A DNA stretch of 64,000 nucleotides from an uncultured Alphaproteobacteria bacterium (GCA_947085295.1 CAMTVX010000028.1:26148-90147); one strand, 5' to 3'. Shown: positions 1-61,473, counted from the first letter of the stretch. The notes: a model not told the origin generated them from the letters alone. Made by a program: numbers and translations.

Positions 1-1412
1 AACCCCGATTCTTCCCACGCATAATTGCTTAGCCCGTTGGCTGGGGCGCGCATATGCGTTACGCGCGGTGGATACATATCGCGCAGCAACACATTGGGCG
101 TTCGCCCCTGCTGCGCGCGCCGCCACATTTCTGCGCATACTGGATCGGCCTTCAAAAATTTCGCATCCGGGACATAATCCCCGGGGCCATCGGCGGCATG
201 CAGGGCCACATCAATACCCCCGGCATGCAGCGCCCGCGCAAATTCACGATTGACCAGGGCCAGGCTATAGCTGCTGTCAAATGGTCCTTCGATGCGGATT
301 TCCGGCGATGTTTCCTGCCTTGCCGATGGATGCCTATTCACCGCCATGCCAATGGATTCAAGAAATCCAGCCAGCGCATCGCGCAGCGTCTGGCGTTCGA
401 AGCGCAGTAAATTCTGGCGTTGGGCCAGCAAAATACGCCGGCGCAAAATGGGTTCATCCGCCAGCACCCTGAGCAGTGCCGCCGTCTGCGCATGGTCCTT
501 GCGCGACAATAATAAACCGCCCTGACCAATGGTGTCGGCAATGGTCGTGCTGTTATAGGCAATGACCGGCACATCATGCGCCATCGCCTCGATCAGCGGC
601 ATGCCAAATCCTTCATGCTCGCTCATGGATACATAGACATCTGCCGTCTGAAAAATCGCAGACAGACTTTCATCGGAAATTTTTCCGGTAAATTCGACGC
701 TATCGCCAAGATGCAGTTCGGCGCACATACGTTGCAGACGCGCAAGATATTCCTGCGACGAAACATCGCCGGCCAGTATCAGGCGCACGGGCACATCCAT
801 ACGGCGACGCAGATGCGAAAATATCGAAATTAAATCATGCTGGCATTTATTTTCTGAAATGCGCCCGACAAAAACCATATTATAGACGCCATCCAGACGC
901 GCCATTAAGGCTTTGTCAGCGGGAGCCTTGCGTACACGGTCAATATTCACGAGCAGCGGAATTGTAATTGCACCCGCATATCCGTGCTGCAACAGCTCTT
1001 CTGTGTTAAAGGGGGAATCCCCGATGGCCCCAATAAAGCGGCCACGCCATTTCGCAAGCTGTTCCCTGCCAATTTCCGAATAGCGGCGCATGGGACTGCC
1101 AACGGGAAAAAATTCGGCAGGCGTAATATTATGATAAATCAGCGCCAGACGGCTTTGCAGCGCCTCTACCCAGGCGCCATGATTATGCCCCAGTGAATGA
1201 TGCAACAGCAGAAGCTGGTCCGGCGCATCGGGATACGCTTCTATCGGCTGCAACTCCGCCGTTAATTCGGACGCAATCTGCGCGCAGTAAATTTCTGACG
1301 CAAATCCCAGTTCGCGCAAAAGTTCACGAATGAAAAGCATCGAATTGGTTACGCCATCGCCATAGGCGGAACCCACATGAAACTGATGAATGGCGCGCGG
1401 GTTCAATGACAC
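1..1412 (-). CDS. Glycosyltransferase family 4 protein with two tandem GT4 modules (WbdA-like glycan polymerase). It is 5'-complete and its 3' part runs past the left edge of the window. It is absent from the ORF track because it has no stop codon inside the window.
   Basis: Manual reverse-complement translation from ~1412 downward gives ...HQFHVGSAYGDGVTNSMLFIRELLRELGF.... This is followed by the GT4 C-terminal hallmark SEHEGFGMPLIEAMAHDVPVIAYNSTTIADTIG, and then a second GT4-like N-terminal module (...IRIEGPFDSSYSLALVNREFARAL...) that continues beyond coordinate 1. Candidate GTG/TTG starts at 1404-1418 sit directly after the TGA stop of the upstream methyltransferase. Confidence 0.7.
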   Translation of the reverse strand, partial: MSLNPRAIHQFHVGSAYGDGVTNSMLFIRELLRELGFASEIYCAQIASELTAELQPIEAYPDAPDQLLLLHHSLGHNHGAWVEALQSRLALIYHNITPAEFFPVGSPMRRYSEIGREQLAKWRGRFIGAIGDSPFNTEELLQHGYAGAITIPLLVNIDRVRKAPADKALMARLDGVYNMVFVGRISENKCQHDLISIFSHLRRRMDVPVRLILAGDVSSQEYLARLQRMCAELHLGDSVEFTGKISDESLSAIFQTADVYVSMSEHEGFGMPLIEAMAHDVPVIAYNSTTIADTIGQGGLLLSRKDHAQTAALLRVLADEPILRRRILLAQRQNLLRFERQTLRDALAGFLESIGMAVNRHPSARQETSPEIRIEGPFDSSYSLALVNREFARALHAGGIDVALHAADGPGDYVPDAKFLKADPVCAEMWRRAQQGRTPNVLLRDMYPPRVTHMRAPANGLSNYAWEESG

Positions 1413-1418
1413 GGACAA

Positions 1419-2729
1419 TCAGGCCTTTCGCGCCCAGATGGCATAATCCATCGGTCCATACAGCAGCCTGTTCAGGCGCATTGCAACGGCATCGTCACCC
1501 TGCAACTTCTGCGCCTCGTCCGCCTCGTGCAGATAAATCACTTCGGCATTCAAAAATCCGCGCTGTTCCACCATGAAACGTGAAACCGATGGCGGCAATG
1601 GGGCCCGGTGCGTGGGATCGTTCCAGAACGTACTCGCACCCACAATCAGATTTTCCGGATTGGGCGTTTCAAACAGAATGAACCCACCCGGGGTCAACAC
1701 CCGATTAGCTTCGTCAATAATGCGGATTAAATCATCCAGCGCCAGATGCTCTATAATGTGAAAACCTGTCAGGCCCGCAAGGCTTGCGTCCGGCAGGCTT
1801 TGCAAATGCGCCAGCGCCTCTGCTTCACGCACATCAAGATTGGCTGTGCGCGCATCCGCGACAAATACGCTGTTCAGATCAATGCCGTACGCCTTAATGC
1901 CGCTTTCTGCCAGCAATTCAATCCACTCGCCACGTCCGCACCCAATATCCAGAACCGGCAAATGTGTCGCTGCAACTGACATGCGATCCATATAAACTTC
2001 AAGTCGGCTTTTGATCTGTTCGCGGCTTCCACGAAATGCCGCCTCGAACGCCGCGTAATAGGAATCCAGCGCATCCGTGCGCGCTGGCATGGTGACGCCA
2101 ACAGCCGCTGCCCCGGCACCTGACTGCAATGCCGGTGCTGCCAGCGCAGCCGTAAGTCTGCGTTGCTGAAAAACCATCTCTGAACGATTTTCGGCACTGC
2201 GCCTTTTTTCTTCGTCCACTTCCTGACGAAGCGCCGTGGTATGCGCAAGATTAAGTTCCTGGGCCACTTTCAAACGCTGTTCGACAAAACTCATTTCCTG
2301 ACGCAATTCATCCAGACGCGCATTTACCTCACCCAGACGGGCATTGGCCTCACCCAGACGCGCATTAAAACGATGCTCGGCCGCGCCAAGTTCGCGAACT
2401 GTCATTTCAAGACGCCCGCGCGTTTCATGCACCAGCGCCAGACTTTTCAGCCAGCGCAATCCATAACCAAGATAAGGCACGGCCAGCAGCCGCGCACCAA
2501 TCTGTCTTTGCCGTTGCCACTGATTAAGCATTGCCATCGCAGAGCCTATAACGGGTATGCCGCGCAGACGCATCTTCAGCGCCAACAGGGCCGATGTCTT
2601 ATAACCTGATGCCAATTGGCCACCTGCTGTCAATGCGGGAACGCCATGCTGTTCGGGTTGCAGCATTTCAACAGCGATACGCCGTTCCAGTGCGCCATAA
2701 TCTATGTCGGGGTTGTTGGCCTCGATCAT
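1419..2729 (-). CDS. Class I SAM-dependent methyltransferase with an N-terminal coiled-coil region. It is a candidate glycan chain-terminating/modifying enzyme, WbdD-like in role but with the reverse domain order.
   Basis: The ORF track gives 1419..2774. The SAM-binding motif VLDIGCGRGEWIELL is present. The coiled-coil segment contains the heptad-like tandem repeat NARLGEANARLGEVNARLDELRQE. Met16 at 2727-2729 forms an ATGA overlap with the wzt stop, so the shorter start is preferred. Confidence 0.8.
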   Translation of the reverse strand: MIEANNPDIDYGALERRIAVEMLQPEQHGVPALTAGGQLASGYKTSALLALKMRLRGIPVIGSAMAMLNQWQRQRQIGARLLAVPYLGYGLRWLKSLALVHETRGRLEMTVRELGAAEHRFNARLGEANARLGEVNARLDELRQEMSFVEQRLKVAQELNLAHTTALRQEVDEEKRRSAENRSEMVFQQRRLTAALAAPALQSGAGAAAVGVTMPARTDALDSYYAAFEAAFRGSREQIKSRLEVYMDRMSVAATHLPVLDIGCGRGEWIELLAESGIKAYGIDLNSVFVADARTANLDVREAEALAHLQSLPDASLAGLTGFHIIEHLALDDLIRIIDEANRVLTPGGFILFETPNPENLIVGASTFWNDPTHRAPLPPSVSRFMVEQRGFLNAEVIYLHEADEAQKLQGDDAVAMRLNRLLYGPMDYAIWARKA

Positions 2730-3961
2730 GGCGCTGTCACGGCGATTTTGTGCAGGCTTGGTTCCAGCCTGCACAAGCCATCAAAATGTGGTCCTGAATA
2801 GCCGGCCACTTCGAATTGCAACAGATTATCGCACCAATGATAGCAATCCGTAAGGTGGTTATCCTTATCGTGCAATGCGGCCGTTAGCGTATAAAGGCCC
2901 GGCCCAAGATTCATCGCCATGCGAATTGAAAAACTGATGCGTTCGCCTGCTTCAAATGACAAAGGATAGCCAAGAAAATAGGTGTTGGTCCCGTATATAT
3001 CCTGCCCCAGACGGTCACGTATCAAAAACCCAAGCGTCACCGACTGCATCGCCCTGGTTGCCGCTAGATCAAAAACAAAATCGGCGACTTCACCAGAGGC
3101 GAATATCTGGCTGCCGGATATCTGTCCGGTGACTTTCGCCCCACGGATACTCACAACGCCGGAACCATAGCCGCGCGCGATTTCAGTATCGTTGGCAACC
3201 GGCGCTTGCGGTTGCTGGTGCTGCAGGGATGGGGCTACCTCATCCAGATCTGCAATCAACCGGTAATAATAATTCACTGCCTCTTCGGGCGTACCGGAGA
3301 AAACCGTTTTGCCTTCTTCCAGAACCATTGCCGTGTCACACAGAACCTTGACCGCATTCATATCGTGCGAAACAAATAATATCGCGCCCCCGCCAGCGCG
3401 AAATTCCTTGATGCGCTTCATGCATTTTTGCTGAAAATGCGCATCGCCAACGGAAAGCGCCTCGTCCACCACAAGACATTTCGGGTTGGCGTGGATGGCA
3501 ATAGAAAATGCCAGGCGCATCGTCATGCCGGATGAATAGGTGCGCACTGGATGGTGGATGACATCGCCCAATTCGCTGAAATCCACAATGGCCTGACGCT
3601 GTTGCGCCACCTCTGCCTGCGTCATGCCAAGCAGCGCCGCGTTGAAGGCGATATTATCGTAACCGGTCAATTCCGGATTGAACCCGGTACCCAATTCCAA
3701 CAGGCCTGTCACGCGCCCGGACAGCGTAACGCTGCCCTGATCTGGCAGGATGACCCCCATTACCAGTTTGAGCAGTGTTGATTTTCCCGCGCCATTGCGG
3801 CCAATCACCCCCAGCACCTGCCCTGCTTCAAGATTGATGCTGATATCCTGAATCGCCAGCTTTTCTTCATGCAGCTTGCGGCGGAAAATCAGTTCACGCA
3901 GCCGGTCGCTATGGCGCAGATAGATCCGGTAATACTTGCTTACATGGTCAACCCTGATCAT
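2726..3961 (-). CDS. wzt: ABC transporter ATP-binding protein, Wzt-like, with a ~170-aa C-terminal extension (putative glycan-terminus-binding domain).
   Basis: Walker A motif GRNGAGKST, LSGG-type signature and Walker B are present. An extra C-terminal beta-rich domain follows the nucleotide-binding domain. The gene sits directly after an ABC-2 permease and before a glycosyltransferase/methyltransferase. Confidence 0.8.
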   Translation of the reverse strand: MIRVDHVSKYYRIYLRHSDRLRELIFRRKLHEEKLAIQDISINLEAGQVLGVIGRNGAGKSTLLKLVMGVILPDQGSVTLSGRVTGLLELGTGFNPELTGYDNIAFNAALLGMTQAEVAQQRQAIVDFSELGDVIHHPVRTYSSGMTMRLAFSIAIHANPKCLVVDEALSVGDAHFQQKCMKRIKEFRAGGGAILFVSHDMNAVKVLCDTAMVLEEGKTVFSGTPEEAVNYYYRLIADLDEVAPSLQHQQPQAPVANDTEIARGYGSGVVSIRGAKVTGQISGSQIFASGEVADFVFDLAATRAMQSVTLGFLIRDRLGQDIYGTNTYFLGYPLSFEAGERISFSIRMAMNLGPGLYTLTAALHDKDNHLTDCYHWCDNLLQFEVAGYSGPHFDGLCRLEPSLHKIAVTAP

Positions 3962-3981
3962 GGTAACCCTGCCCCAACCGA

Positions 3982-4752
3982 TTAAATCGCATCGCGAATC
4001 TGGTGTTCGCTATGCGACAGAAGCCAGAGTATGCCACCTGCCATAAGGACGCTTCCAGCCAGCAACTGCATTATGTTTCCCATGTCCGGCATCGCGCCAT
4101 AAACAAAAATCTGATGATATTCACGCACAAACCACCATGCAGGATTGAACGCCTGAATGGCCTGCATGAAATGGGGCACGGAATCAATGGTGTAAACAAT
4201 GGGCACCATCCAGAACCATAACATGGTCACGACCCCGACCATTTCGCGAATGTCGCGCAGAAACACCATCAGAATGGCCCCGATCAGGCCAATTGAAAAA
4301 GCCATGAGCTGCTGACAGATAATCAATAGCGGCAACGCCAGCAAACCCGCAGACAGCGGAACCGACAATGCCAGACTCAAAAGGATAAACAGGCCAAGGG
4401 TGCAGATCAGGGTGATCCCTTCCACAATCGGAATATGGATCGCAATGAGGTTCAGGCTGAGCGGGACTTTGCTGAGTATGGCGCGCTTGTCAAAGAACAC
4501 GGTGGTCATGCGCGCAATAGTGCTGGCAAATGCGGTCCAGGGCAAAATTCCCGAAACCAGATAGATGCCATAGCCATATGTACCGGACTGCGTTCCCGGC
4601 AGGCGTGGGCCTATCAACCCCCCAAATATCACAACAAATATAAGGATTTGCAGCATCGGTGTCAGCAGCAGCCAGCCCCTGCCAAGTGCAACACCAGAAT
4701 AGCGGTCAGAAAAATCCTGCCTGACAAAGTGCCATAATAAAGCAAGGTTCAT
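3982..4752 (-). CDS. wzm: ABC-2 family polysaccharide export permease (Wzm-like).
   Basis: A 256-aa protein with six predicted TM helices. It is the first gene of the operon, 20 nt upstream of wzt. Confidence 0.75.
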   Translation of the reverse strand: MNLALLWHFVRQDFSDRYSGVALGRGWLLLTPMLQILIFVVIFGGLIGPRLPGTQSGTYGYGIYLVSGILPWTAFASTIARMTTVFFDKRAILSKVPLSLNLIAIHIPIVEGITLICTLGLFILLSLALSVPLSAGLLALPLLIICQQLMAFSIGLIGAILMVFLRDIREMVGVVTMLWFWMVPIVYTIDSVPHFMQAIQAFNPAWWFVREYHQIFVYGAMPDMGNIMQLLAGSVLMAGGILWLLSHSEHQIRDAI

Positions 4753-5059
4753 AGGAGAATCATCACCATTTTTGCCTTGTTACTGATATAAGGGGCGGTC
4801 TCGGGCGTTCTGACGGCACCTGACAGGCGGGAAAGCACTGTTGTTGCGCTTTCCTACAGTTCTGCAACCACCATGTCAAAGCTCTTGCTTTTTAACGCTC
4901 CCGGTCCATATAAGCAGCGACAAAAGCAGCGTCTGCCCTAATTGCGCTGCAATTTCTTGCAGATATCCCCAATGGTTGATATTTTGTTAACCTTTATTTG
5001 CGCCACTCAAGCTACGCTGCCCGAGAGGGCGAATCGGCTAAAGGATTGAAAGTATCGCC

Positions 5060-6805
5060 ATGAAAGGCAAAGAACAGTCGGAACTGGCCCAGGTTCTTGG
5101 CAAGTCCCGCTCCGCATTTATCGGCGCTGGCGTTTTCAGCTTTTTTATCAATCTGCTGATGCTGGTGTCGCCACTCTACATGTTGCAGATTTATGACCGG
5201 GTGCTGGCCAGCCGGAACGAGACCACTTTGTGGGTATTGACCCTTGTCGCGGTGTTCCTGATTGTTGTCTATGCCGCACTGGAAACCATGCGTTCGCGTG
5301 TGCTGGTGCGCATCAGCGGACAGATGGACAGCCTGTTGAACGCCCGGGTTTTTACCGCTTTGTTCAAATCCGCCGTGCGTGGGCCGGGGGGCGGATCCGG
5401 CCAGGCCATCCGGGATCTGGATTCGGTGCGCGACTTTTTGACCGGACAGGGGCTGTTTGCGTTTTTTGACGCGCCATGGATGCCGCTTTACCTGGCGGCG
5501 ATCTTCCTGATTGATCCCCTATTGGGCTGGGTGGCGACGGCGGGGGGTGTGACATTATTCGGACTTGCCGTGCTCACCGAAATTGCCACGCGCGATACAC
5601 TCAGTGAAGCAAGTGTCGCAAATATGCGCGCCGGGCATTTTGTTGAGGTCAGCCTGCGCAATGTCGAAGCGATTGAGGCGATGGGCATGGTCCCCGCCAT
5701 GCTCAAGCGCTGGCAGGGTCGGCGCGCCAAAATGCTGCAATTGCAGTCGCTGGCCAGCGACCGTGCGGGTGTCATTACGGCCTTGTCCAAATTCACACGC
5801 GTTGTATTGCAAATCGCCATTCTGGGCTTTGGCGCCTATCTGGTGATCCATGATCAAATCACGGCTGGTCTGATGATCGCCGCATCCATTATGATGGGCC
5901 GCGCTCTGGCGCCTGTGGAAATCGCGGTTGGTAGCTGGAAGCATTTTCTGACGGCCCGCAGTTCTTATGACCGCCTGAATGCCTTGCTCAAGGCCGTCCC
6001 CCCCCAACGTGACTTTATGCACCTGCCACCGCCGCTTGGCATTCTACAGGTGGAACAGGCCATTGTTGTGCCACCCGGCGCCACCGTGCCCGCGCTGAAG
6101 GGCGTGGGGTTCAATGTGGCCGCTGGCGATATTGTTGGCATTATCGGTCCCAGCGCTGCGGGAAAATCCACACTGGCGCGCTTGCTGGTTGGCGTTTGGC
6201 CAGCTTATGCCGGCAAGGTGCGCATTGATGGCGCCGACATTATGACCTGGGACCGTGAGCGCCTTGGCCCCTATATGGGCTATCTGCCGCAGGATGTTGA
6301 ATTGTTCGAGGGCACCATTGCCGAGAATATCGCCCGCTTTGGCGAGGTGGATGCGGATCAGGTAATTCTGGCAGCACAGCGCGCCGGGGTGCATGAGTTG
6401 ATACTCAAACTGCCCGCAGGATATGACACACAGATCGGGCCGGGTGGCCAAACGCTTTCCGGTGGCCAGCGCCAGCGCGTGGGTCTTGCGCGGGCATTAT
6501 ATGGCGACCCGGCGATTATCGTGCTGGATGAGCCCAACTCCAATCTGGATAATGATGGCGAAGCGGCACTGGCACGAACCGTTGCCGATCTGAAAGCGCG
6601 CAAGCGTACAACACTGGTAATTACGCACCGCCCCAGCCTGCTGGCGTCGGTTGACTATATTATGGTGATGCGCGAAGGATTAATCGAAAAATTTGGTCCG
6701 CGAGATGAGATTCTGGGTCAATATCTGCGTCCCGCTGCCGTGCCCAGCACGCCTGCCGAACCGGAACCCAACAGAGGCGGCGTAGCGGTGGTAAATCCGG
6801 CATGA
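5060..6805 (+). CDS. prtD: Type I secretion system ABC transporter (PrtD/AprD family; permease-ATPase without a C39 peptidase domain).
   Basis: The N-terminus FIGAGVFSFFINLLMLVSPLYMLQIYDRVL is typical of T1SS ABC exporters. It has a C-terminal nucleotide-binding domain with GPSAAGKST, LSGGQRQR and IVLDEPNSNLD. Confidence 0.85.
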   Translation: MKGKEQSELAQVLGKSRSAFIGAGVFSFFINLLMLVSPLYMLQIYDRVLASRNETTLWVLTLVAVFLIVVYAALETMRSRVLVRISGQMDSLLNARVFTALFKSAVRGPGGGSGQAIRDLDSVRDFLTGQGLFAFFDAPWMPLYLAAIFLIDPLLGWVATAGGVTLFGLAVLTEIATRDTLSEASVANMRAGHFVEVSLRNVEAIEAMGMVPAMLKRWQGRRAKMLQLQSLASDRAGVITALSKFTRVVLQIAILGFGAYLVIHDQITAGLMIAASIMMGRALAPVEIAVGSWKHFLTARSSYDRLNALLKAVPPQRDFMHLPPPLGILQVEQAIVVPPGATVPALKGVGFNVAAGDIVGIIGPSAAGKSTLARLLVGVWPAYAGKVRIDGADIMTWDRERLGPYMGYLPQDVELFEGTIAENIARFGEVDADQVILAAQRAGVHELILKLPAGYDTQIGPGGQTLSGGQRQRVGLARALYGDPAIIVLDEPNSNLDNDGEAALARTVADLKARKRTTLVITHRPSLLASVDYIMVMREGLIEKFGPRDEILGQYLRPAAVPSTPAEPEPNRGGVAVVNPA

Positions 6806-9656: not shown

Positions 9657-9797
9657 CTTATTGGCGGCATCGGCAGCCCGCCTGTGCGTAAACGATTTCA
9701 CACTTGACACCCCCCGGCAACCATCCGGTAGACTTACCCGATGGGGGCGAGGTGGGGGCAAACGCGGATGGGATTCGAAGATGCGGCCCGTTTTATG

Positions 9798-10127
9798 GGC
9801 ATCGGCCTTATCGCATGGCTATCACTATTGGCTGTGCTGATTGCATACAGAATGCTGACCGGCGCCATATGGACGCGCGGAATTTTAAGTAACGCCCAAG
9901 AAGACGGAACAAGCCATATAGATATGGAGCGTTTGCAGCTTCTGATCATTTTCCTTGTCAGTGTCGCTTTCTATATCAAGACGGGTCTGGCGGCGCTTGG
10001 GCAACCCGGGACGCTCACCATTATGCCCGAACCGCCGGAGCTGTTCCCTGAATTGCTGCTGGCAAGCAACGCCATCTATCTGGCCGGAAAATATGGCCGG
10101 AAAATACAAAAAGGAGATACGCCATGA
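9798..10127 (+). CDS. Small integral membrane protein (hypothetical), paralogous to the next ORF.
   Basis: The ORF track starts at 9741; the internal Met (MGIGLIAWL...) is preferred. Two to three TM helices are predicted. The segment MERLQLLIIFLVSVAFYI resembles RFQFLIFTFVIAGLYTI in the next ORF. Local GC is ~48%. Confidence 0.5.
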   Translation, partial: GIGLIAWLSLLAVLIAYRMLTGAIWTRGILSNAQEDGTSHIDMERLQLLIIFLVSVAFYIKTGLAALGQPGTLTIMPEPPELFPELLLASNAIYLAGKYGRKIQKGDTP

Positions 10128-10462
10128 CGCCGGTCAATATTGCCCTGTGGGGATTTATACTGCTTGGCAGCATCATACTTGGCTTTGCAGCGATTGTGCT
10201 GTGGAAGATTGGCTCCGGCGAAATTGATATAACCCGTCTGATCAGTGAGCCCGCTACTGACCCCAATAATGCGGGTGAAAATCAAAAGGGCAGCCTGTCG
10301 CGATTTCAGTTCCTGATCTTTACCTTCGTCATTGCGGGCCTGTACACCATCCTGTGCATTGAAAGCGGAACCCTGATCGAAATTCCGGATAGCGTGTTGC
10401 TGTTACTGGGCATCAGCGGCGGCAGCTTTCTTGTTTCCAAAGGCATCAGCGCCAATAAATGA
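10124..10462 (+). CDS. Small integral membrane protein (hypothetical), a tandem paralog of the previous ORF.
   Basis: About three TM helices. ATGA overlap with the preceding ORF. Same architecture (TM, polar loop, TM, TM). Confidence 0.5.
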   Translation: MTPVNIALWGFILLGSIILGFAAIVLWKIGSGEIDITRLISEPATDPNNAGENQKGSLSRFQFLIFTFVIAGLYTILCIESGTLIEIPDSVLLLLGISGGSFLVSKGISANK

Positions 10463-10484
10463 GCTTCTGGAGTGGATCTGTAAA

Positions 10485-11315
10485 ATGCAGCGTATACTGA
10501 TCATTATTGCATTAATCGCCTTCGCCACACCGTCAATGGCTGCGGACCCCACGGATATCACCCCGTGCGAAAGCATGTTTGCAGACACCGGCATGCCATC
10601 CTATCGCGGGGATTTTGACGAAGATCATCATAGTTTGCGCTGCCGCCTGGGCTATGTGCTTTCGCATAATAACGAAACCCGCATTCCTGACTGGGTGTTG
10701 CAGGAATTGCCCGACGGTCAGATATCCGGCGCGGCAAAGCGCAAAGACAATTTCAAAGCGGACGACAGCCTGCCCCCGGAAACCCGTGCAGAAAAAAGCG
10801 ACTATAAGGGCAGCGGCTTTGATCAGGGCCATCAGGCGCCCGCCGCTGACTTCAAATCAAGCCAGGAGATGACGGATGAGAGTTTTTTACTCTCGAACAT
10901 GGCCCCGCAAGTCGGCCTGAGTTTCAACCGTGGAATATGGGCGCATCTGGAAGAGCAGGTGCGCGACTGGCTTGACACCCGCAGCCGCCTGATCGTCATT
11001 ACCGGCCCGGTCTATGACGCGCCAGATCTGAACGTGCCGAAAGTGCCTGCCATTCCAAAACCCGGCGCCGGGCAGGCGGAACCTGAACGGGTTGCCGTTC
11101 CTGCCGCCTTCTACAAAATCGTCTATGATCCGGAAATCGGGCGCGCTATTGCATTCCTGATGCCGAACAAGAAATTGCCGAAACGCAAACCAGCAGAATT
11201 TCTTGCCTCCATCGCAGATATAGAAGAGCGCACCGGGCTGGACTTCTTCACCACGCTGACCAAACGCCGCCAGCGCACCCTTGAAAGCAACGTCTCGCCC
11301 ATGTGGGAGCATTAA
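10485..11315 (+). CDS. Secreted DNA/RNA non-specific endonuclease (Serratia/NucA family, beta-beta-alpha-Me).
   Basis: Sec signal peptide MQRILIIIALIAFATPSMA. DRGH-type catalytic motif DQGHQAPAADF, with the downstream metal-ligand Asn in LSNMAPQ. The ORF track start (10431) was trimmed to the Met that begins the signal peptide. Confidence 0.8.
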   Translation: MQRILIIIALIAFATPSMAADPTDITPCESMFADTGMPSYRGDFDEDHHSLRCRLGYVLSHNNETRIPDWVLQELPDGQISGAAKRKDNFKADDSLPPETRAEKSDYKGSGFDQGHQAPAADFKSSQEMTDESFLLSNMAPQVGLSFNRGIWAHLEEQVRDWLDTRSRLIVITGPVYDAPDLNVPKVPAIPKPGAGQAEPERVAVPAAFYKIVYDPEIGRAIAFLMPNKKLPKRKPAEFLASIADIEERTGLDFFTTLTKRRQRTLESNVSPMWEH

Positions 11316-11362: not shown

Positions 11363-13576
<2,214 letters not shown>

Positions 13577-13597
13577 CGATTCTTATCAGGGTGGTAA

Positions 13598-15091
13598 ATG
13601 GAAATAGACGAGGAGATACGAAAGATTAGAAATAGACTCCGACTTTACAGCGGGCAGTCTATTGTTGCTCAAGCATTACGCGTACTTCATTGCCAGTTTC
13701 CCAGCCCGCTCGAAGACCTAAAAGCGGCGCCCTGGCTCACCATGCTTATTGTGAAATGGGCGGTGCAGGACAAATTAGTTTTTCAATCGATTGGAGAAGT
13801 CATTACTTCTCAAGAATTTGATGCTTTGCGCAATTTGCTCTGGAACATTCAAGGGAAAATCTCAAAAAGCGAAAACACACCAAACATCCATGCGATGCTA
13901 CGAACCATGCTTCACCCCCAGGTTCAGTTTCAACGGAGAGAGACCTGGGGGTTTCTGAGGTGGCCTGCATTGATCGCACAACTTGATATGAGCCATCCAA
14001 ATCGCACTCAGTTTGAAAACACATTCTTGATTTCACCCGAGACGTATATGGACTTGAGTTTTGCGGTCTATACTCAGGTTATAAATGGAAAAAAGACATT
14101 ACCGCCAGATTACTTTGCTTCTATCGAGGGGTACTATGGTAATAGCATCTCTACCTTCTTGGAACTTTTTGTGCGTGATTTTTCATCTCTTAGACGGGAA
14201 CTTCGAGAGAACGTCAAACGCCCAATGCGAGGAAGGATAGAATTTTTTGAATTTCCCTACCTTCAGCGATTTCCCATCTTTCGCACACCCGACGGAGTTC
14301 TGAATTTTTGGCATCGCAGCGTTTTTGCACGCGGCATGGAGGATGCAGTACACCTTCGCTTGTCAAATCTTGGCGCTAGCTACACAGAACCTTTCAGTCA
14401 AATTTTCGAAGGCTACGTCTTAGGTCTTCTAAATGATAATAAGATTCTATTCTTTGGGGAAGATGAGATCCGGAAAACTTTCAGCAGGAGAGACTCCACA
14501 GTCGAAGCAATTATTGATTGTGACGACTGCAATATCTTTATCGAAGCAAAAATGAGTTTATTCTGGGATGATGTACTGCTTGATGACGACCCCCAGCAGG
14601 TTTTCAATAAAACAGAAAACGTGAGGAAAGCCATTCAACAGGGATGGCAGGCAAGTGATTTACTTCGTAGTGGACGGGGACAACTTGGTGCGTGCGCAAA
14701 CAAGGTGCAGGATTTTCTCCTGGTTGTCACCAGTCGGCAGCTAAATATAAGCGGTGGGAATATGCTCAATAATATATACCCAGAAGGATCCTTTGAAGAG
14801 GTCCTTCCTTTTAATAAGAGACGATATCTGCCGCCAGAAAATATCTTCGTTCTTTCGATCGAGGACTTTGAGCGGCTAGCCGGCTGCCACCGGCTGGGAG
14901 AAGTTGAACTAGCTCCCCTTCTCAAGAAGGCGGCTATGGCCAATAACGATCCGATAACCTCTAAGATGTTTTTTTCAGATTTCCTCCAGGAATATCGAAT
15001 GCATGAGCGGAGCATACCTCGTCTGATTCAGCTAGCCAGGGATGAAGCAACAGCAAGGTTATCTAGCGCGCTAGAGCAAGATGAGATTTGA
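13598..15091 (+). CDS. Hypothetical protein, 497 aa, AT-rich orphan gene with no confident family assignment. It has a candidate PD-(D/E)xK-like nuclease core.
   Basis: The start lies 21 bp after the uvrB stop, preceded by a GGTGG RBS. Coding GC is ~45% against ~60% in the flanks. The segment EAIIDCDDCNIFIEAKMS fits a D...(E)xK restriction-endonuclease-fold signature. No ABC, helicase, HEPN or other common motif was seen. Confidence 0.55.
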   Translation: MEIDEEIRKIRNRLRLYSGQSIVAQALRVLHCQFPSPLEDLKAAPWLTMLIVKWAVQDKLVFQSIGEVITSQEFDALRNLLWNIQGKISKSENTPNIHAMLRTMLHPQVQFQRRETWGFLRWPALIAQLDMSHPNRTQFENTFLISPETYMDLSFAVYTQVINGKKTLPPDYFASIEGYYGNSISTFLELFVRDFSSLRRELRENVKRPMRGRIEFFEFPYLQRFPIFRTPDGVLNFWHRSVFARGMEDAVHLRLSNLGASYTEPFSQIFEGYVLGLLNDNKILFFGEDEIRKTFSRRDSTVEAIIDCDDCNIFIEAKMSLFWDDVLLDDDPQQVFNKTENVRKAIQQGWQASDLLRSGRGQLGACANKVQDFLLVVTSRQLNISGGNMLNNIYPEGSFEEVLPFNKRRYLPPENIFVLSIEDFERLAGCHRLGEVELAPLLKKAAMANNDPITSKMFFSDFLQEYRMHERSIPRLIQLARDEATARLSSALEQDEI

Positions 15092-15097
15092 TTGAAT

Positions 15098-15305
15098 CGC
15101 TTTTAGCCCCCCACCCCGGCCCTCCCCACGAGGGGGAGGGAGAAGAAGAGTAGAATAGAGGGAAATCCCCTCCCCTCCTTGCCCCATGGCTGTAGCGAAG
15201 AGGGGGATGGGCTGTTGCGGTTGACATTTTGTTTCGCGTCCAGCGCCCCCTCTCCCCCTTGTGGGAGAGGGTCGGGGTGAGGGGGAAGAAGCCAGACCAT
15301 CACGC
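15098..15305. repeat. Cluster of GC-rich palindromic repeat units (REP-like), including an inverted pair.
   Basis: Units: cccccaccccggccctccccacgagggggagggagaag; ccctctcccccttgtgggagagggtcggggtgagggggaagaag; and an intervening cccctcccctcc...gaagagggggatggg. Each contains a hairpin such as ccctctccc/gggagaggg. Antisense translation produces the spurious ORFs 15071..15469 and 15103..15303. Confidence 0.7.
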
Positions 15306-15352
15306 GTTAGGAAAATGGACGGGCGGCGCACCAGCCTGTATGATCCGCACCC

Positions 15353-16604: not shown

Positions 16605-16870
16605 AACATCTGAATTAATCATTTGCCCTATTGACTCGCGAAGGCCTCTGGACTAGCCCCCCCGGAAAAGTTTGTTCACAGAATGAAAAAACATGACAAT
16701 TGCTAAGGTTTTATGACGCTTTCGTATAAAAATGACAAAATCACTCCGATGTCGGATTAAATTGTTTATTAGTATCAGATAGTTAGGGTGGTGACTAAAA
16801 ATTAGGCAGTTTAAGGAAGTCTTAGGGTTTCTGCGTGACTCCGGCCCGTTTGAATAGTTTTCACACATGT

Positions 16871-16893
16871 TTATCCACAGCTTGCGTGGATAG
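16871..16893. promoter_or_regulatory. Inverted pair of DnaA-box-like 9-mers (TTATCCACA gcttgc GTGGATAG) inside a 325-bp AT-rich intergenic region upstream of uvrC.
   Basis: Exact TTATCCACA at 16871-16879 and an 8/9 reverse match at 16886-16893. The surrounding 16605-16931 is ~40% GC and has no ORF. Confidence 0.4.
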
Positions 16894-16931
16894 TAAACTC
16901 TACCCTTCTGGTTACGGCTCTGACCTCATTC

Positions 16932-18812
16932 ATGCAGGAAAATTCTCCCAATTCAGACGCCGAAAAAGGTCCAAAAACGGGCCCGGAGGTGATCTACGCC
17001 TATCTGCGGCAACTGCCCCACAGTCCGGGCGTGTACCGCATGCTGGGCACCCGGGGTGACGTGCTGTATGTCGGCAAGGCGCGCAGCCTGAGAAACCGGG
17101 TTTCCAGCTATACCAAGCTGACCGGGCAGACGGTGCGCATCGGCCGCATGATCCAGGCCACCGCTTCGATGGAATTTATCACCACCGAGACGGAAACCGA
17201 GGCGCTGCTGCTGGAAGCCAATCTGATCAAGCGGTTGAAGCCCTATTACAATGTGCTGCTGCGCGATGATAAAAGCTTTCCCTATATTCTGATCACTGGC
17301 GGTCATGATTTTCCGCAACTGGACAAGCATCGCGGCGCGCGCAGCCGGGCGGGCGAATATTTCGGGCCGTTCGCCAATGCAGGCGCGGTTAGCCGAACCC
17401 TTAACACCATGCAAAAGGCGTTTTTGCTGCGTTCGTGCACCGATGCGGTGTTTGCCAACCGTACCCGGCCCTGTCTGCTGCATCAAATCAAGCGGTGCAG
17501 CGCGCCCTGTGTCGGCTTTATCGATGGCCCCGCCTATACCGGGCTGGTCGCGCAGGCGCGGGATTTTCTGGCGGGCGGAGGGGCAGAGGTGCGCGCCGGA
17601 TTAACGGCTGCGATGGAGCAGGCGTCCGAGGCGCTGGATTTTGAACGCGCCGCCACGTTTCGCGACCGCATCCGCGCGATGAGCGCGGTTCAGGCGCATC
17701 AGGGCATTAATCCGCAAACCCTGCTGGAGGCCGATGTATTCGCGGCGCATCAGGAGGGCGGGCAAACCTGTATTCAGGTGTTCTTTTTCCGGGCCGGGCA
17801 AAACTGGGGCAACCGCGCCTATTTTCCACGCGCCGATAAATCACTGAGCGCGGCTGAAATACTGGGGCCGTTCATCGTGCAGTTTTACGACAATAAGCCA
17901 TCGCCAAATCTGATTTTACTGTCGCATGCGGTGGAAGGCATGCCGCTGATTTGCGACGCGCTGACGCTGCGATCGGAACGTCGGGTTGAGATCGCCGTTC
18001 CAAAACGCGGCGAGAAATTCGAGATGGTGCAGCATGCCCTTAAAAACGCGCATGAGGCCCTGGATCGCAGACTTGCCGAATCCGCCTCGCAAACAAAACT
18101 TCTACAGGATGTGGCGACCACATTTGGCCTGGACGCGCCACCGCAGCGCATCGAAGTCTATGACAATAGTCATATTCAGGGTAGTAACGCGGTGGGTGGG
18201 ATGATTGTTGCCGGGCCGCTGGGGTTCGAGAAAGGCCAATACCGCAAATTCAACATGCGCAATGAAGAACTGACCCCCGGCGATGATTACGCCATGCTGC
18301 GCGAGGTGTTGACGCGGCGCTTTCAACGGCTGTTGCGCGAAGGCCCGCGCGAAGAGAATGGCGCGTGGCCGGGTCTGGTGCTGATTGATGGCGGGGCCGG
18401 GCAACTTTCCATCGCCGTAGAGGTGCTGCGCGAGCTGGACATTACCACCGTGCCGCTGGTGGCGATTTCCAAGGGGCCGGACCGCAATGCCGGGCGTGAA
18501 CAGTTTCACGTGCCGGGCCAGCCGGTGCGCAGCCTGGAACCGCGCGATCCGGTGCTGTATTTCCTGCAACGGCTGCGGGACGAGGCGCACCGTTTTGCCA
18601 TCGGCGCACACCGCAACGCCCGCGCACGGGCCGCGACCGCTTCGCCGCTGGACGAAATGACGGGCATCGGGCCTCGGCGCAAGCGCGCCCTGCTTAATCA
18701 TTTTGGCTCGGCCCGCGCGGTTTCCCAGGCGGGGCTAAGCGATCTGGAAGCCGTGCCGGGCATCAGTACGGCCATGGCCAAACAAATTTACGCGCATTTC
18801 CATGATGGATAG
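16932..18812 (+). CDS. uvrC: Excinuclease ABC subunit C.
   Basis: GIY-YIG N-terminus ([28 protein letters not shown]), UvrBC-interaction region and a C-terminal RNase H-like/HhH domain. Confidence 0.95.
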
Positions 18813-20183: not shown

Positions 20184-20726
20184 TTGCGCTTACTGGCCAT
20201 TTCCGGCAGTCTGAGAGACAAATCCTCCAACACATCTGCGTTGCAGGCGGCAGTGATCCTGGCGCCACCCGAAGTTGAAGTTGTTCTTTATACGGATTTG
20301 GGGAAGCTTCCGCATTTTAATCCGGACCTGGATACGGATAGACCCCCGGAATATGTCAGCGCACTGCGTCAGAAAATCGCGTGCTGTGACGGGCTTATAA
20401 TTTGCTCTCCGGAATATGCGCATGGCATTGCAGGCACCATGAAGAACGCACTTGACTGGCTTGTGAGCAGTGTTGAATTTCCGCAAAAGCCGGTGGCGCT
20501 GATCAATACGTCACAGCGTGCAGTCCATTCTGAGGCACAGTTACGCGAAATCCTGAAAACCATGTCGGCACGTGTGGTTGACGAAGCCTCTATCACACTC
20601 CCGCTTTTGGGCCAGAAGCTGGACGCTGCCTCAATCACAGCGCATCCAGATTTTTCTGTCCAACTTCAATCAGCCCTTGCGTATTTTATGGCGGCAATCC
20701 GGGCGAGAGCGACGACAGACAATTAG
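20184..20726 (+). CDS. NAD(P)H-dependent FMN reductase family oxidoreductase.
   Basis: Flavodoxin-like fold with N-terminal LAISGSLRDKSSNTSAL, typical of the SsuE/NADPH-FMN reductase family. Confidence 0.7.
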   Translation: MRLLAISGSLRDKSSNTSALQAAVILAPPEVEVVLYTDLGKLPHFNPDLDTDRPPEYVSALRQKIACCDGLIICSPEYAHGIAGTMKNALDWLVSSVEFPQKPVALINTSQRAVHSEAQLREILKTMSARVVDEASITLPLLGQKLDAASITAHPDFSVQLQSALAYFMAAIRARATTDN

Positions 20727-39694: not shown

Positions 39695-40104
39695 ACTCTC
39701 TCCTTTCGGTAGCCCCGCTGCCCTGCCTTTCATAAAGGAATGGGGCCGGTAGCTTTGCGTCCCGTCATTCCTGACGGGTTGCCGTTTCGAGAAGCGCGTC
39801 ACCCCTGCATCTTAACGCAAAGGTGCTGGCCCCCGTCCTGTGTCAGGTCATTCCCAAAATTCACTTCGTCAGATGCTTATCCAATTGCGCGAACTTCGTA
39901 TGCCCTATGCCGACCATTTAAGCGCTAACAGCTTAATTTCCAGTAAAATTAATCCCTGTTGGCCATTGCGCACACACAGTTTTTTGTTAGTAAACTGTTG
40001 ACCATGTTTGCTTTTTTGGCACTGGACTGTTGTTGGGGCTTGCGCCGGGGCTGGTGTCGTGCTAATTTCTTACCAAATATATGTCGATAGAAAAAGGTAA
40101 GAAA

Positions 40105-40317
40105 ATGGCTGATACCGCAACCCTTTCGGCAAAGTTCCAGATATCTATCCCCAAGGCGGTGCGCACGGCGCGAAAATGGCGGGCGGGACAGGAATTTGCC
40201 TTCATTCCCAAAGGCGCGGGTGTGCTTTTGATCCCGGTTCCCGAAGCGGATGAACTTGCCGGAATCGCCAAAGGCGCGAAGCCGGTGGATTATCGGGACC
40301 GGAACGACCGCTTCTGA
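40105..40317 (+). CDS. vapB: AbrB/MazE/SpoVT-type antitoxin (VapB).
   Basis: MADTATLSAKFQISIPKAVR swapped-hairpin motif. Its stop overlaps the vapC start. Confidence 0.75.
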   Translation: MADTATLSAKFQISIPKAVRTARKWRAGQEFAFIPKGAGVLLIPVPEADELAGIAKGAKPVDYRDRNDRF

Positions 40318-40697
40318 TGCGCCTTGTGGACACATCCGCCTGGGTTGAATGGCTGATCGCATCACCCACGGGCAAAGCCGTCGCATCCGCCATCCCCGCG
40401 CGCGAAGACTGGCTGGTGCCGACCATCGTACAACTCGAACTCGCCAAATGGCTGACGCGCGAGGTTGGCGAGGACAAGGCCGATCAGGTCGTGGCTTTCA
40501 CACAAATGTGCCATGTCGCGCCGCTGGACACCAAAATCGCCCTGGCGGCGGCGGAACTGTGCCGCCAGCACAAACTCGCCACCGCCGACGCGATTGTCTA
40601 CGCCACCGCGCGGGAGTTTGGCGCCGAGCTGTTAACCTGCGATGTGGATTTTAAGGGGCTGCCGGGTGTGGTATTTGTGGGGAAGGTGGGGGGTTGA
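40317..40697 (+). CDS. vapC: PIN-domain toxin VapC.
   Basis: MRLVDTSAWVEWL with the acidic PIN residues (D5, E..., D...). 126 aa. Confidence 0.85.
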   Translation: MRLVDTSAWVEWLIASPTGKAVASAIPAREDWLVPTIVQLELAKWLTREVGEDKADQVVAFTQMCHVAPLDTKIALAAAELCRQHKLATADAIVYATAREFGAELLTCDVDFKGLPGVVFVGKVGG

Positions 40698-40768
40698 CCT
40701 ACAGTCCACTTAAATTCATCATCTCGCCGTGCCTTTTAAAGACAATCTAAAGAATAGAGAAAATCAGT

Positions 40769-41635
40769 ATGATTAACTTTACCTTGGAGTATGCAGGGAG
40801 GGATGCCGACGATCATAAAATCGATTTTTATGATGTCGCTCACGCGATAATTGGATTCCAGCGTTCTTTGGCAATCACAACGCATCTTGTGCTCACTGGT
40901 GAGATAATCACTCAAGCGCCTTCGCTACAAAATGCAAGAATTCTTACTGTACCTCCGCAAGAAGGGAGTTGGGCAATTACCGCAATTATTGTTGGCGCGG
41001 TGTTTGCGGCCGGAACGGCCTCAAAAGATACTCCAATCGGTCATCTTATCCATTCCGCTTATGATTACATAATTTCCGAATTGCTTGGCTTTCATGTGGA
41101 TTACGAAAAATCGCTTGGTCAGCAGTATGAGCTTCTAAAGAAGGGGCCTGAATCAACAATACCAATGCTCGAACAGTCTAAAATGGATTCAGCAATTGAA
41201 AAATGTGAAGGTGCTATTAACGATATGCACCGGCCAATTTGGAAATCTCAAACGGCATTAACTGCCGAACTAATATCTCACATAGGTCTAGATAAAAAAA
41301 TATTTGGGCAGCAGCTGAATATAGAGACTTATGAACATATTAACTTCACTCGTAGAATATCTGATAATTATAGAATTTCCGGTCGCGTCTCTAGTTATAA
41401 TATCAATACCTACAAAGGACGTATTTTTCTTCCCGAAGAGAAACGCCCAATCCCATTTATTTTGGCAGATAAGGCAAAAAACAACCTCAGTGTTGAATTG
41501 ATCACGCGCAGCTTGACAATGAATGCTCGAAATAGATCCAGACCAGAGGGGAATATTAGCTGCATTGCATATCGGGATTTAAGTCGTACTGGGCGACTAA
41601 AAAGTCTGTTTATAATAGAGGTTTTAGCGGATTGA
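40769..41635 (+). CDS. Hypothetical protein, 288 aa, AT-rich orphan gene (island cargo); no family recognised.
   Basis: Coding GC ~42% against ~60% in the flanks. It lies immediately 3' of vapBC, inside a repressor/ParA/TA cluster. Mixed alpha/beta, with no TM helix and no common catalytic motif seen. Confidence 0.5.
   Translation: MINFTLEYAGRDADDHKIDFYDVAHAIIGFQRSLAITTHLVLTGEIITQAPSLQNARILTVPPQEGSWAITAIIVGAVFAAGTASKDTPIGHLIHSAYDYIISELLGFHVDYEKSLGQQYELLKKGPESTIPMLEQSKMDSAIEKCEGAINDMHRPIWKSQTALTAELISHIGLDKKIFGQQLNIETYEHINFTRRISDNYRISGRVSSYNINTYKGRIFLPEEKRPIPFILADKAKNNLSVELITRSLTMNARNRSRPEGNISCIAYRDLSRTGRLKSLFIIEVLAD

Positions 41636-59388: not shown

Positions 59389-61473
<2,085 letters not shown>

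Follow-up and report, generated by a model that had tools for sequence, protein, structure and literature searches.

A GapS1 family gene between uvrB and the SDR gene

We found that an AT-rich open reading frame (ORF) of 497 codons, situated between uvrB and an SDR gene in DNA from an uncultured Alphaproteobacteria bacterium (GCA_947085295.1 CAMTVX010000028.1:26148-90147; the whole stretch of 64,000 nucleotides is called the window below), belongs to the GapS1 (GAPS1) family, an already described and curated kind, and very probably encodes an intact, stand-alone anti-phage protein of about 500 amino acids (aa), with sensor and effector united in a single polypeptide. The translated ORF matches the NCBIfam model NF047931 ("antiphage_GapS1") with E = 2e-116 and 389.5 bits, compared to a curated cut-off of 320, and the match is near full-length (residues 10-461 on profile positions 1-454 of 455). 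Five homologs at 33-79% identity also exceed this cut-off, and one of the homologs, encoded on a conjugative Nitrosomonas plasmid, outscores the 497-aa protein against the family model with 448 bits. An earlier reading made from the sequence alone (the sequence-only reading) had presented the gene as an orphan of unknown family, possibly a horizontally acquired nuclease or defence protein. The orphan status has to be dropped, as the protein is a full-length member of a populous family. That no Walker, HEPN, TIR, SIR2 or helicase motifs had been noticed agrees with a Pfam scan of the protein, which returned no family at E ≤ 10; with no match in Pfam or in the 2023 release of PADLOC-DB, a motif-based reader therefore saw an orphan. 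The annotation is thus settled, current NCBI annotation models would assign the name automatically, and the understanding of the GapS1 family as such is left unchanged by these results.

A search of 5.8 billion proteins yielded 183 relatives. Among the 120 of these that were listed (own entry aside), identity ranges from 39 to 79%, and several listed relatives from Variovorax, Caballeronia, Paraburkholderia, Ramlibacter and Cupriavidus carry the NCBI name "GapS1 family protein". The exhaustive profile search covered 1.84 billion cluster representatives (clusters at 50% identity) and gave 1,125 clusters at E ≤ 1e-3, a number that falls to 810 at 1e-10 and to 376 at 1e-30; nearly all clusters are about 500 aa long and matched from end to end. 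The homologs are scattered over beta- and gammaproteobacteria. Regarding their neighborhoods, a Ramlibacter homolog is flanked by a type III restriction-modification (RM) system on one side and two GmrSD genes on the other, a Paraburkholderia homolog adjoins NACHT or a methylase, and another homolog adjoins a resolvase and a phage pRha gene.

Predicted fold and active site

The AlphaFold2 model, computed from an alignment of 26 sequences, reached a mean pLDDT of 89.3 and a pTM of 0.88. It predicts an all-helical N-terminal domain followed by a C-terminal domain of the PD-(D/E)xK nuclease type (Table 1), the core of which would be built from helix 260-280, strands 304-307 and 311-318, helix 340-356 and strands 371-378 and 416-420. 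The closest solved structure is Upx (PDB 9wuf; score 10.9, 271 residues aligned), followed by N.BspD6I (8.0), the small subunit of R.BspD6I (7.4), FokI (6.9), HindIII (6.7), Bse634I (5.9), SeAvs3 (5.8), McrC (5.3) and the Shedu protein SduA (4.6); SgrAI and PspGI are also among the restriction enzymes ranked behind Upx. The Foldseek result is likewise consistent with a restriction-endonuclease fold. Searches of the PDB sequences with phmmer and with the family profile returned noise only (GpsB and PheT at E > 0.1). The proposal of a defence-type nuclease with a restriction-endonuclease fold in its C-terminal part, made beforehand from the sequence, is therefore upheld by the NF047931 match, the model and the fold matches.

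On the basis of family conservation and of a 15-residue spacing between acid and lysine we assign the active-site motif as E271...(D/E)303-x12-(D/E)316-x-K318. All four residues (E271, E303, E316 and K318) are invariant in the close alignment. In a wide alignment of 36 family sequences reaching down to 21% identity, E271 and K318 are retained throughout and positions 303 and 316 are always acidic. The segment EAIIDCDDCNIFIEAKMS, whose first residue, E303, is the conserved acid, contains the nuclease motif. The sequence-only reading had picked this region as a D...(D/E)xK core of the form IIDCDD...IEAK. It was right in that the segment contains the motif and that the ExK of IEAK is the conserved pair, whereas the aspartates of IIDCDD (D307, D309 and D310) vary freely among the 36 sequences and are no part of the conserved site. 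The Nitrosomonas plasmid homolog reads V-D-A...I-E-S-K at the active-site positions and thus has D where the 497-aa protein has E303. The distance from E303 to K318 (15 residues) is the same as that from D313 to K328 in the GAPS1 protein of Vibrio; from this spacing and the family alignment we infer that E303 and K318 are the equivalents of these two residues.

The N-terminal domain had been expected to be variable. It is conserved family-wide: in alignments that extend to 21% identity, W46, Q108, Q112, R121 and P226 show little or no variation, and all of these but W46 are invariant across the family. No recognisable DNA-recognition domain or domain reading modified bases was found in this part of the protein. 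By analogy with the GAPS1 literature, the N-terminal domain is presumed to act as the sensor.

Table 1. Coordinates of the GapS1 gene, its predicted domains and active-site codons, and the flanking elements, counted from the first letter of the window.
Feature	Position	Strand	Remarks
GapS1-family (GAPS1) anti-phage protein gene, intact	13598..15091	+	497 aa, ATG start; ORF call and NF047931 match
N-terminal all-helical domain, aa ~1-255 (predicted)	13598..14362	+	AlphaFold2 helices 3-224; presumed phage-trigger sensor
C-terminal PD-(D/E)xK nuclease domain, aa ~256-465 (predicted)	14363..14992	+	alpha-beta-beta-beta-alpha-beta core
Codon E271, helix-1 glutamate of nuclease core	14408..14410	+	E in 36/36
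Codon E303, 'D' position of PD-(D/E)xK	14504..14506	+	acidic in all: 26 D, 10 E
Codons E316-A317-K318, (D/E)xK motif	14543..14551	+	position 316: 22 E, 14 D; K318 in 36/36
uvrB-GapS1 spacer, 21 bp	13577..13597	+	GGTGG ribosome-binding-like site only; no room for promoter
GC-rich imperfect inverted repeat, one long hairpin	15089..15302		between GapS1 and SDR promoter region
Right boundary of inserted segment, conserved SDR upstream block	15310..15352	+	host homology resumes

Relation to known systems

The prototype of the family, WP_005477165.1 of Vibrio parahaemolyticus, is a single protein from a Gamma-Mobile-Trio (GMT) island with a C-terminal PD-(D/E)xK domain. The substitutions D313A and K328A abolish its defence against T7, T7 escapers map to the capsid protein Gp10, and co-expression of GAPS1 and Gp10 leads to dormancy, not death; four E. 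coli homologs with an identity of only 24-29% also protect, and about 3.5% of the genomes in RefSeq carry a homolog (Mahata et al., bioRxiv 10.1101/2023.03.28.534373). Most homologs were found by homology in RefSeq, the GMT island being the origin of the name and not a requirement. The protein studied here resembles GAPS1 in being a single chain of about 500 aa with a helical N-terminal part and a C-terminal PD-(D/E)xK domain, and in the patchy, horizontally spread distribution of its family. It differs from the Vibrio protein in its alphaproteobacterial host and in the first catalytic acid, which is E instead of D and hence in the minority state (10 of 36 members). This alphaproteobacterial branch of GapS1 with E as first catalytic acid is one of the new aspects of the present gene. 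Unlike the Vibrio gene, it is also probably read through from uvrB and appears to be old and vertically retained, as discussed below.

Upx, the best fold match, is likewise a stand-alone PD-(D/E)xK defence protein, the nuclease of which is controlled in cis and activated by a phage protein. With 1,212 aa, Upx has a nuclease domain at either terminus and a middle domain connecting the two, and the phage protein sensed is the terminase or gp16 (PMC13099982, PMC13601566). The 497-aa protein has one nuclease core only, and no sequence similarity to Upx was detected with PADLOC or in the profile search against PDB sequences. Membership in the Upx group was therefore rejected, as size, domain architecture and sequence homology all fail. 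That Upx is nevertheless the closest solved structure hints that GapS1 and Upx may share more than the nuclease core. As in Shedu, the predicted C-terminal PD-(D/E)xK nuclease lies behind a non-catalytic N-terminal region, which in GapS1 is conserved and not variable. The assignment to a DUF4263/Shedu type, which had been offered as an example, found no support: there is no Pfam or PADLOC match, no DUF4263/Shedu model is matched, and no specific likeness to SduA is seen beyond the generic nuclease core. From the catalytic domains of the FokI and BspD6I type the protein differs by having no recognition domain and no cognate methyltransferase, at an identity of about 10%. We also discarded a type II RM endonuclease, as the gene adjoins uvrB and SDR and has no methyltransferase alongside.

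Composition and history of the uvrB-SDR junction

The GapS1 ORF has a coding GC content of 0.451 and a GC content at third codon positions (GC3) of 0.454. The corresponding values (GC/GC3) are 0.596/0.701 for uvrB, 0.627/0.707 for the SDR gene, 0.604/0.689 for folB and 0.607/0.697 for uvrC. Compared with all 1494-bp windows of the 64 kb (mean GC 0.560, standard deviation 0.030) this corresponds to z = -3.6; all windows at or below the GC content of the GapS1 gene overlap the gene itself, and the next-lowest value elsewhere is 0.47 near 40.7 kb. The gene is thus the most AT-rich stretch of the window and compositionally foreign. What had been noted from the sequence in this regard proved accurate, namely a GC content of ~45% next to ~60% in the flanks, A/T-rich third codon positions and the return to host composition at SDR-folB, as did the exact 21-bp distance of the ORF from the stop of uvrB (11363..13576, 737 aa).

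To place the gene in its context we used 160 loci from genome and metagenome collections, fetched with uvrB and SDR as anchors. In 40 of them uvrB lies upstream of the SDR gene on the same strand, and in 37 of these 40 the gap is only 28-311 bp; in these 37 alphaproteobacterial loci uvrB abuts the SDR gene with no gene between. A GapS1 homolog was found in none of the 160 anchored loci, and in 14 loci a Na/Ca exchanger gene lies immediately upstream of the SDR gene. From the 37 empty gaps and the absence of GapS1 from the anchored loci we conclude that the ancestral arrangement was a tight uvrB-SDR(-folB-uvrC-pgsA-moaD-moaE) array, in which the window carries a 1.7-kb insertion from 13577 to ~15310. 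The earlier claim of horizontal acquisition is therefore supported by both composition and empty sites. The uvrB sequence places the window in the alphaproteobacteria, and among the listed matches to GTDB representatives no relative of it exceeds 78% identity.

The GapS1 homologs closest to that of the window occupy the same site in related lineages. The loci L081 and L082 carry an allele with 66% identity; their housekeeping proteins are 84-95% identical to those of the window. In these loci uvrB is followed by the Na/Ca exchanger gene and then by 52 bp that duplicate the 3' end of uvrB; GapS1 and SDR-folB-uvrC-pgsA-moaD-moaE come next, and the allele again has a low GC content (0.43 vs 0.59-0.66 in the flanks). 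In L086 and L087 an allele with 79% identity follows a uvrB 3' end; in L087 the distance to uvrB is 345 bp and the gap contains another repeat element. Of the SDR gene, these two loci retain about 45 bp from the 5' region downstream of GapS1; next comes a class IV aminotransferase gene, which in the window is found beyond moaE. Between the window and L081 the synonymous divergence (dS) of GapS1 is 0.81, within the range of seven flanking genes (0.46-1.06), while its nonsynonymous divergence (dN) is 0.21 as compared to 0.03-0.15 in the flanks; dN/dS is 0.26, so that the gene is under purifying selection. Since diverged alleles with flank-like dS occupy the same site, the insertion appears to be old, and the data point to an insertion that was already in place when at least three related lineages of alphaproteobacteria diverged. 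The simplest reading of these sequences would be a single old insertion, inherited vertically and kept functional with fast protein evolution, although allelic replacement at the site may have occurred. We rejected recent transfer or repeated insertion into a hotspot as the main explanation, as the dS of GapS1 falls within the flank range. The recent island implied by the sequence-only reading is thus not what we see. That reading had also named the same uvrB-adjacent synteny, if it occurred across the whole genus, as a point speaking against its finding; such synteny exists in two related lineages and so speaks in part against the finding, but foreign origin still stands because of the 37 empty sites. 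The series of empty and filled sites illustrates that one defence gene can stay at one junction, and remain AT-rich, across speciation, in this case over a dS of ~0.5-0.8 under purifying selection.

The uvrB/SDR junction is otherwise unstable and carries other defence cargo elsewhere. Comparison of the interval in relatives, as had been suggested, revealed not only empty sites but also different cargo: L092 has a complete type II RM system with C5 methyltransferase, REase_II (E = 7e-139) and Vsr (3128-5833) immediately upstream of the SDR gene. The locus closest to the window by uvrC (93%) and pgsA (96%), L090, has its SDR-to-moaE block beside CO-dehydrogenase genes (1-6000).

Several further rearrangements were noted around this junction. 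In L081 (770-1838; compare window 13520-13571) the exchanger gene at 816-1781 is bracketed by the 52-bp direct duplication (718-769 and 1782-1833), which resembles a scar left behind when a gene inserts illegitimately or in a site-directed manner. Behind the RM system of L092 lies a duplicated remnant, 120 bp long, of the 3' end of the aminotransferase gene. In L086 (1782-2517) and L087 (1943-2202) the 5.7-kb stretch that separates GapS1 from the aminotransferase gene in the window (SDR-folB-uvrC-pgsA-moaD-moaE and FMN_red) is missing. The palindrome GGACCCCGGAnnAAnTCCGGGGTGACA is common to L087 and L090, and the window is without it. A second variable junction, between moaE and the class IV aminotransferase gene, is located 5 kb from the first; it is occupied in L081 (8375-10543) by genes for a Dcm methylase, a GIY-YIG protein and Vsr (GC 0.47-0.54), and in the window (20184-20726) by an FMN reductase gene instead.

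Expression

Between uvrB and the ATG of GapS1 no promoter-like or terminator-like site was found on the plus strand; the sole promoter-like site on this strand (15316-15344) is part of the block that precedes the SDR gene. As the spacer leaves no room for a promoter of its own, GapS1 is probably co-transcribed in this genome by read-through from uvrB. Immediately before the GapS1 ATG, the window and the alleles of L081 and L087 have the sequence TTCT(T)ATC(A)GGT in common. The 21-bp gap without promoter or terminator, together with the L081 junction kept as a duplicated remnant of the uvrB 3' end, might be taken to mean that GapS1 has lost its own promoter and become fused into the uvrB unit, at a junction that has long been a hotspot for defence genes. 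We regard this as rather doubtful. If it were so, an abortive-infection-type nuclease would be expressed together with a DNA-damage-repair gene, the hotspot would be occupied by GapS1 in three lineages and in a fourth by a type II RM system with Vsr, and the duplications of gene ends would mark repeated illegitimate insertions.

Proposed mechanism and alternative explanations

By analogy with the published family experiments, from which phage trigger, dormancy and anti-phage activity are carried over, the helical N-terminal half (about aa 1-255) would detect a protein of the phage, which might be the major capsid protein as in the Vibrio prototype. This would activate the C-terminal PD-(D/E)xK nuclease (E271, E303, E316-x-K318) as effector, and the resulting arrest of growth (dormancy) would block phage production. 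The gene itself entered the tight uvrB-SDR junction with about 1.7 kb of foreign, AT-rich DNA and appears to have been inherited vertically since then, under purifying selection. Some observations weigh against a GapS1 defence protein of this kind. The scan against PADLOC-DB 2023 returned no family for the 497-aa protein, although the GAPS1 models may be absent from this release, given its date. Unlike Vibrio GAPS1, the gene does not reside on a GMT island but in a solitary insertion of about 1.7 kb with one ORF between uvrB and the SDR-folB operon, a single gene in a housekeeping neighborhood where neither an integrase nor a tRNA nor a further defence gene adjoins it. For trigger and target the proposal draws on the Vibrio protein, the junction is rearranged in L090, the relative closest by housekeeping genes, and the long vertical retention beside uvrB could also fit a domesticated role.

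Regarding the mode of action, the fold matches behind Upx are true restriction enzymes (N.BspD6I, R.BspD6I, FokI, HindIII, Bse634I, SgrAI, PspGI and McrC), and UniRef names some of the homologs "Restriction endonuclease". A conventional solitary restriction endonuclease, either type IV modification-dependent or orphan type II, that cuts foreign DNA directly would account for these points. It is an improbable explanation, however, as the whole length of the protein matches the GapS1 model and no restriction-enzyme family (the Pfam scan being empty), no methyltransferase adjoins the gene in its setting of uvrB and SDR, the N-terminal domain has no recognisable DNA-recognition or modified-base reader, and the tested members of the family respond to a capsid protein and cause dormancy.

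The remaining alternatives concern the fate of the gene after its acquisition, and to both we assign very little probability. The gene could be a domesticated housekeeping nuclease that takes part in nucleotide excision repair, is co-transcribed with uvrB and no longer serves in defence. The 21-bp gap to uvrB free of promoter and terminator would suit such a role, and so would the retention of the same site in at least three diverged lineages with flank-like dS and a dN/dS of 0.26, and the fact that L081 keeps the junction of uvrB 3' end and GapS1 despite a gene inserted upstream. Against a repair function stand the 37 alphaproteobacterial loci in which uvrB abuts the SDR gene without GapS1, the scatter of homologs over beta- and gammaproteobacteria, a conjugative plasmid and defence islands, the 345 bp with another repeat element between uvrB and GapS1 in L087, as well as a dN 2-6 times that of the neighbours with foreign composition kept. 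Just as hard to credit is a dead relic, with expression or function lost after the defence gene had been acquired. AT-rich DNA in a GC-rich alphaproteobacterium may be subject to xenogeneic silencing, which together with the lack of an own promoter in this genome counts for a relic. The reading frame is full-length and matched end to end by the profile, though, all catalytic and family-invariant residues are intact, and dN/dS (0.26) is well below 1 over a dS of ~0.8. An intact, functional GapS1 defence protein thus remains the reading that we prefer.

Downstream hairpin and right boundary

Between GapS1 and the SDR promoter region lies a GC-rich block which the sequence-only reading had described as a cluster of palindromic repeats. 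Such a block exists, although it consists of a single long, imperfect inverted repeat and not of a series of independent repeats: its arms (15089-15136 and 15255-15302) comprise 48 nt each with 71% complementarity and enclose smaller internal palindromes, and the element as a whole folds at -120.7 kcal/mol (z = -6.4 against shuffled sequences). No other copy of the element or of its core motifs was found in the window or in 169 fetched loci, and Rfam gave no match at this position at gathering thresholds. The element is absent from the matching intergenic DNA of L081 and of L086/L087; because both other alleles are without it, we consider the hairpin a later, lineage-specific addition. It could be a terminator or insulator, or a miniature inverted-repeat transposable element (MITE) or repetitive extragenic palindrome (REP)-like element. 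Shortly downstream, homology to relatives resumes in blastn comparisons at 15320 (L081), 15313 (L086/87), 15310 (L090) and 15307 (L091). The block upstream of the SDR gene matches in L081, L086/87 and L090 and contains, on the plus strand, the promoter-like site TGGACG-17-TATGAT mentioned above.

Other features of the window

Two proteins are encoded in the second most AT-rich stretch of the window (40317-41635, GC ~0.46-0.47), one with a PIN domain (40317-40697) and the other a DUF7946/DUF7947 protein (40769-41635). PADLOC gave no match for these two proteins; the stretch may be another foreign module of toxin or defence type. A region of lowered GC content (0.50-0.55) is also located just upstream of uvrB (9741-11315). 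It comprises two small predicted membrane ORFs (9741-10127 and 10124-10462) and a third ORF (10431-11315), whose product has a hydrophobic N-terminal stretch and matches Endonuclease_NS, the DNA/RNA non-specific endonuclease family, with E = 1e-49. No tRNA genes were found in the 64-kb window. Two riboswitches score above the Rfam gathering score, both on the minus strand: c-di-GMP-I-GGC at 39704-39792 (61.5 bits) and TPP at 61278-61379 (70.5 bits). The intergenic region between folB and uvrC (16605-16931) is AT-rich as well (GC ~0.41 in 16650-16949), and a similar gap of ~300 bp is present in L081.

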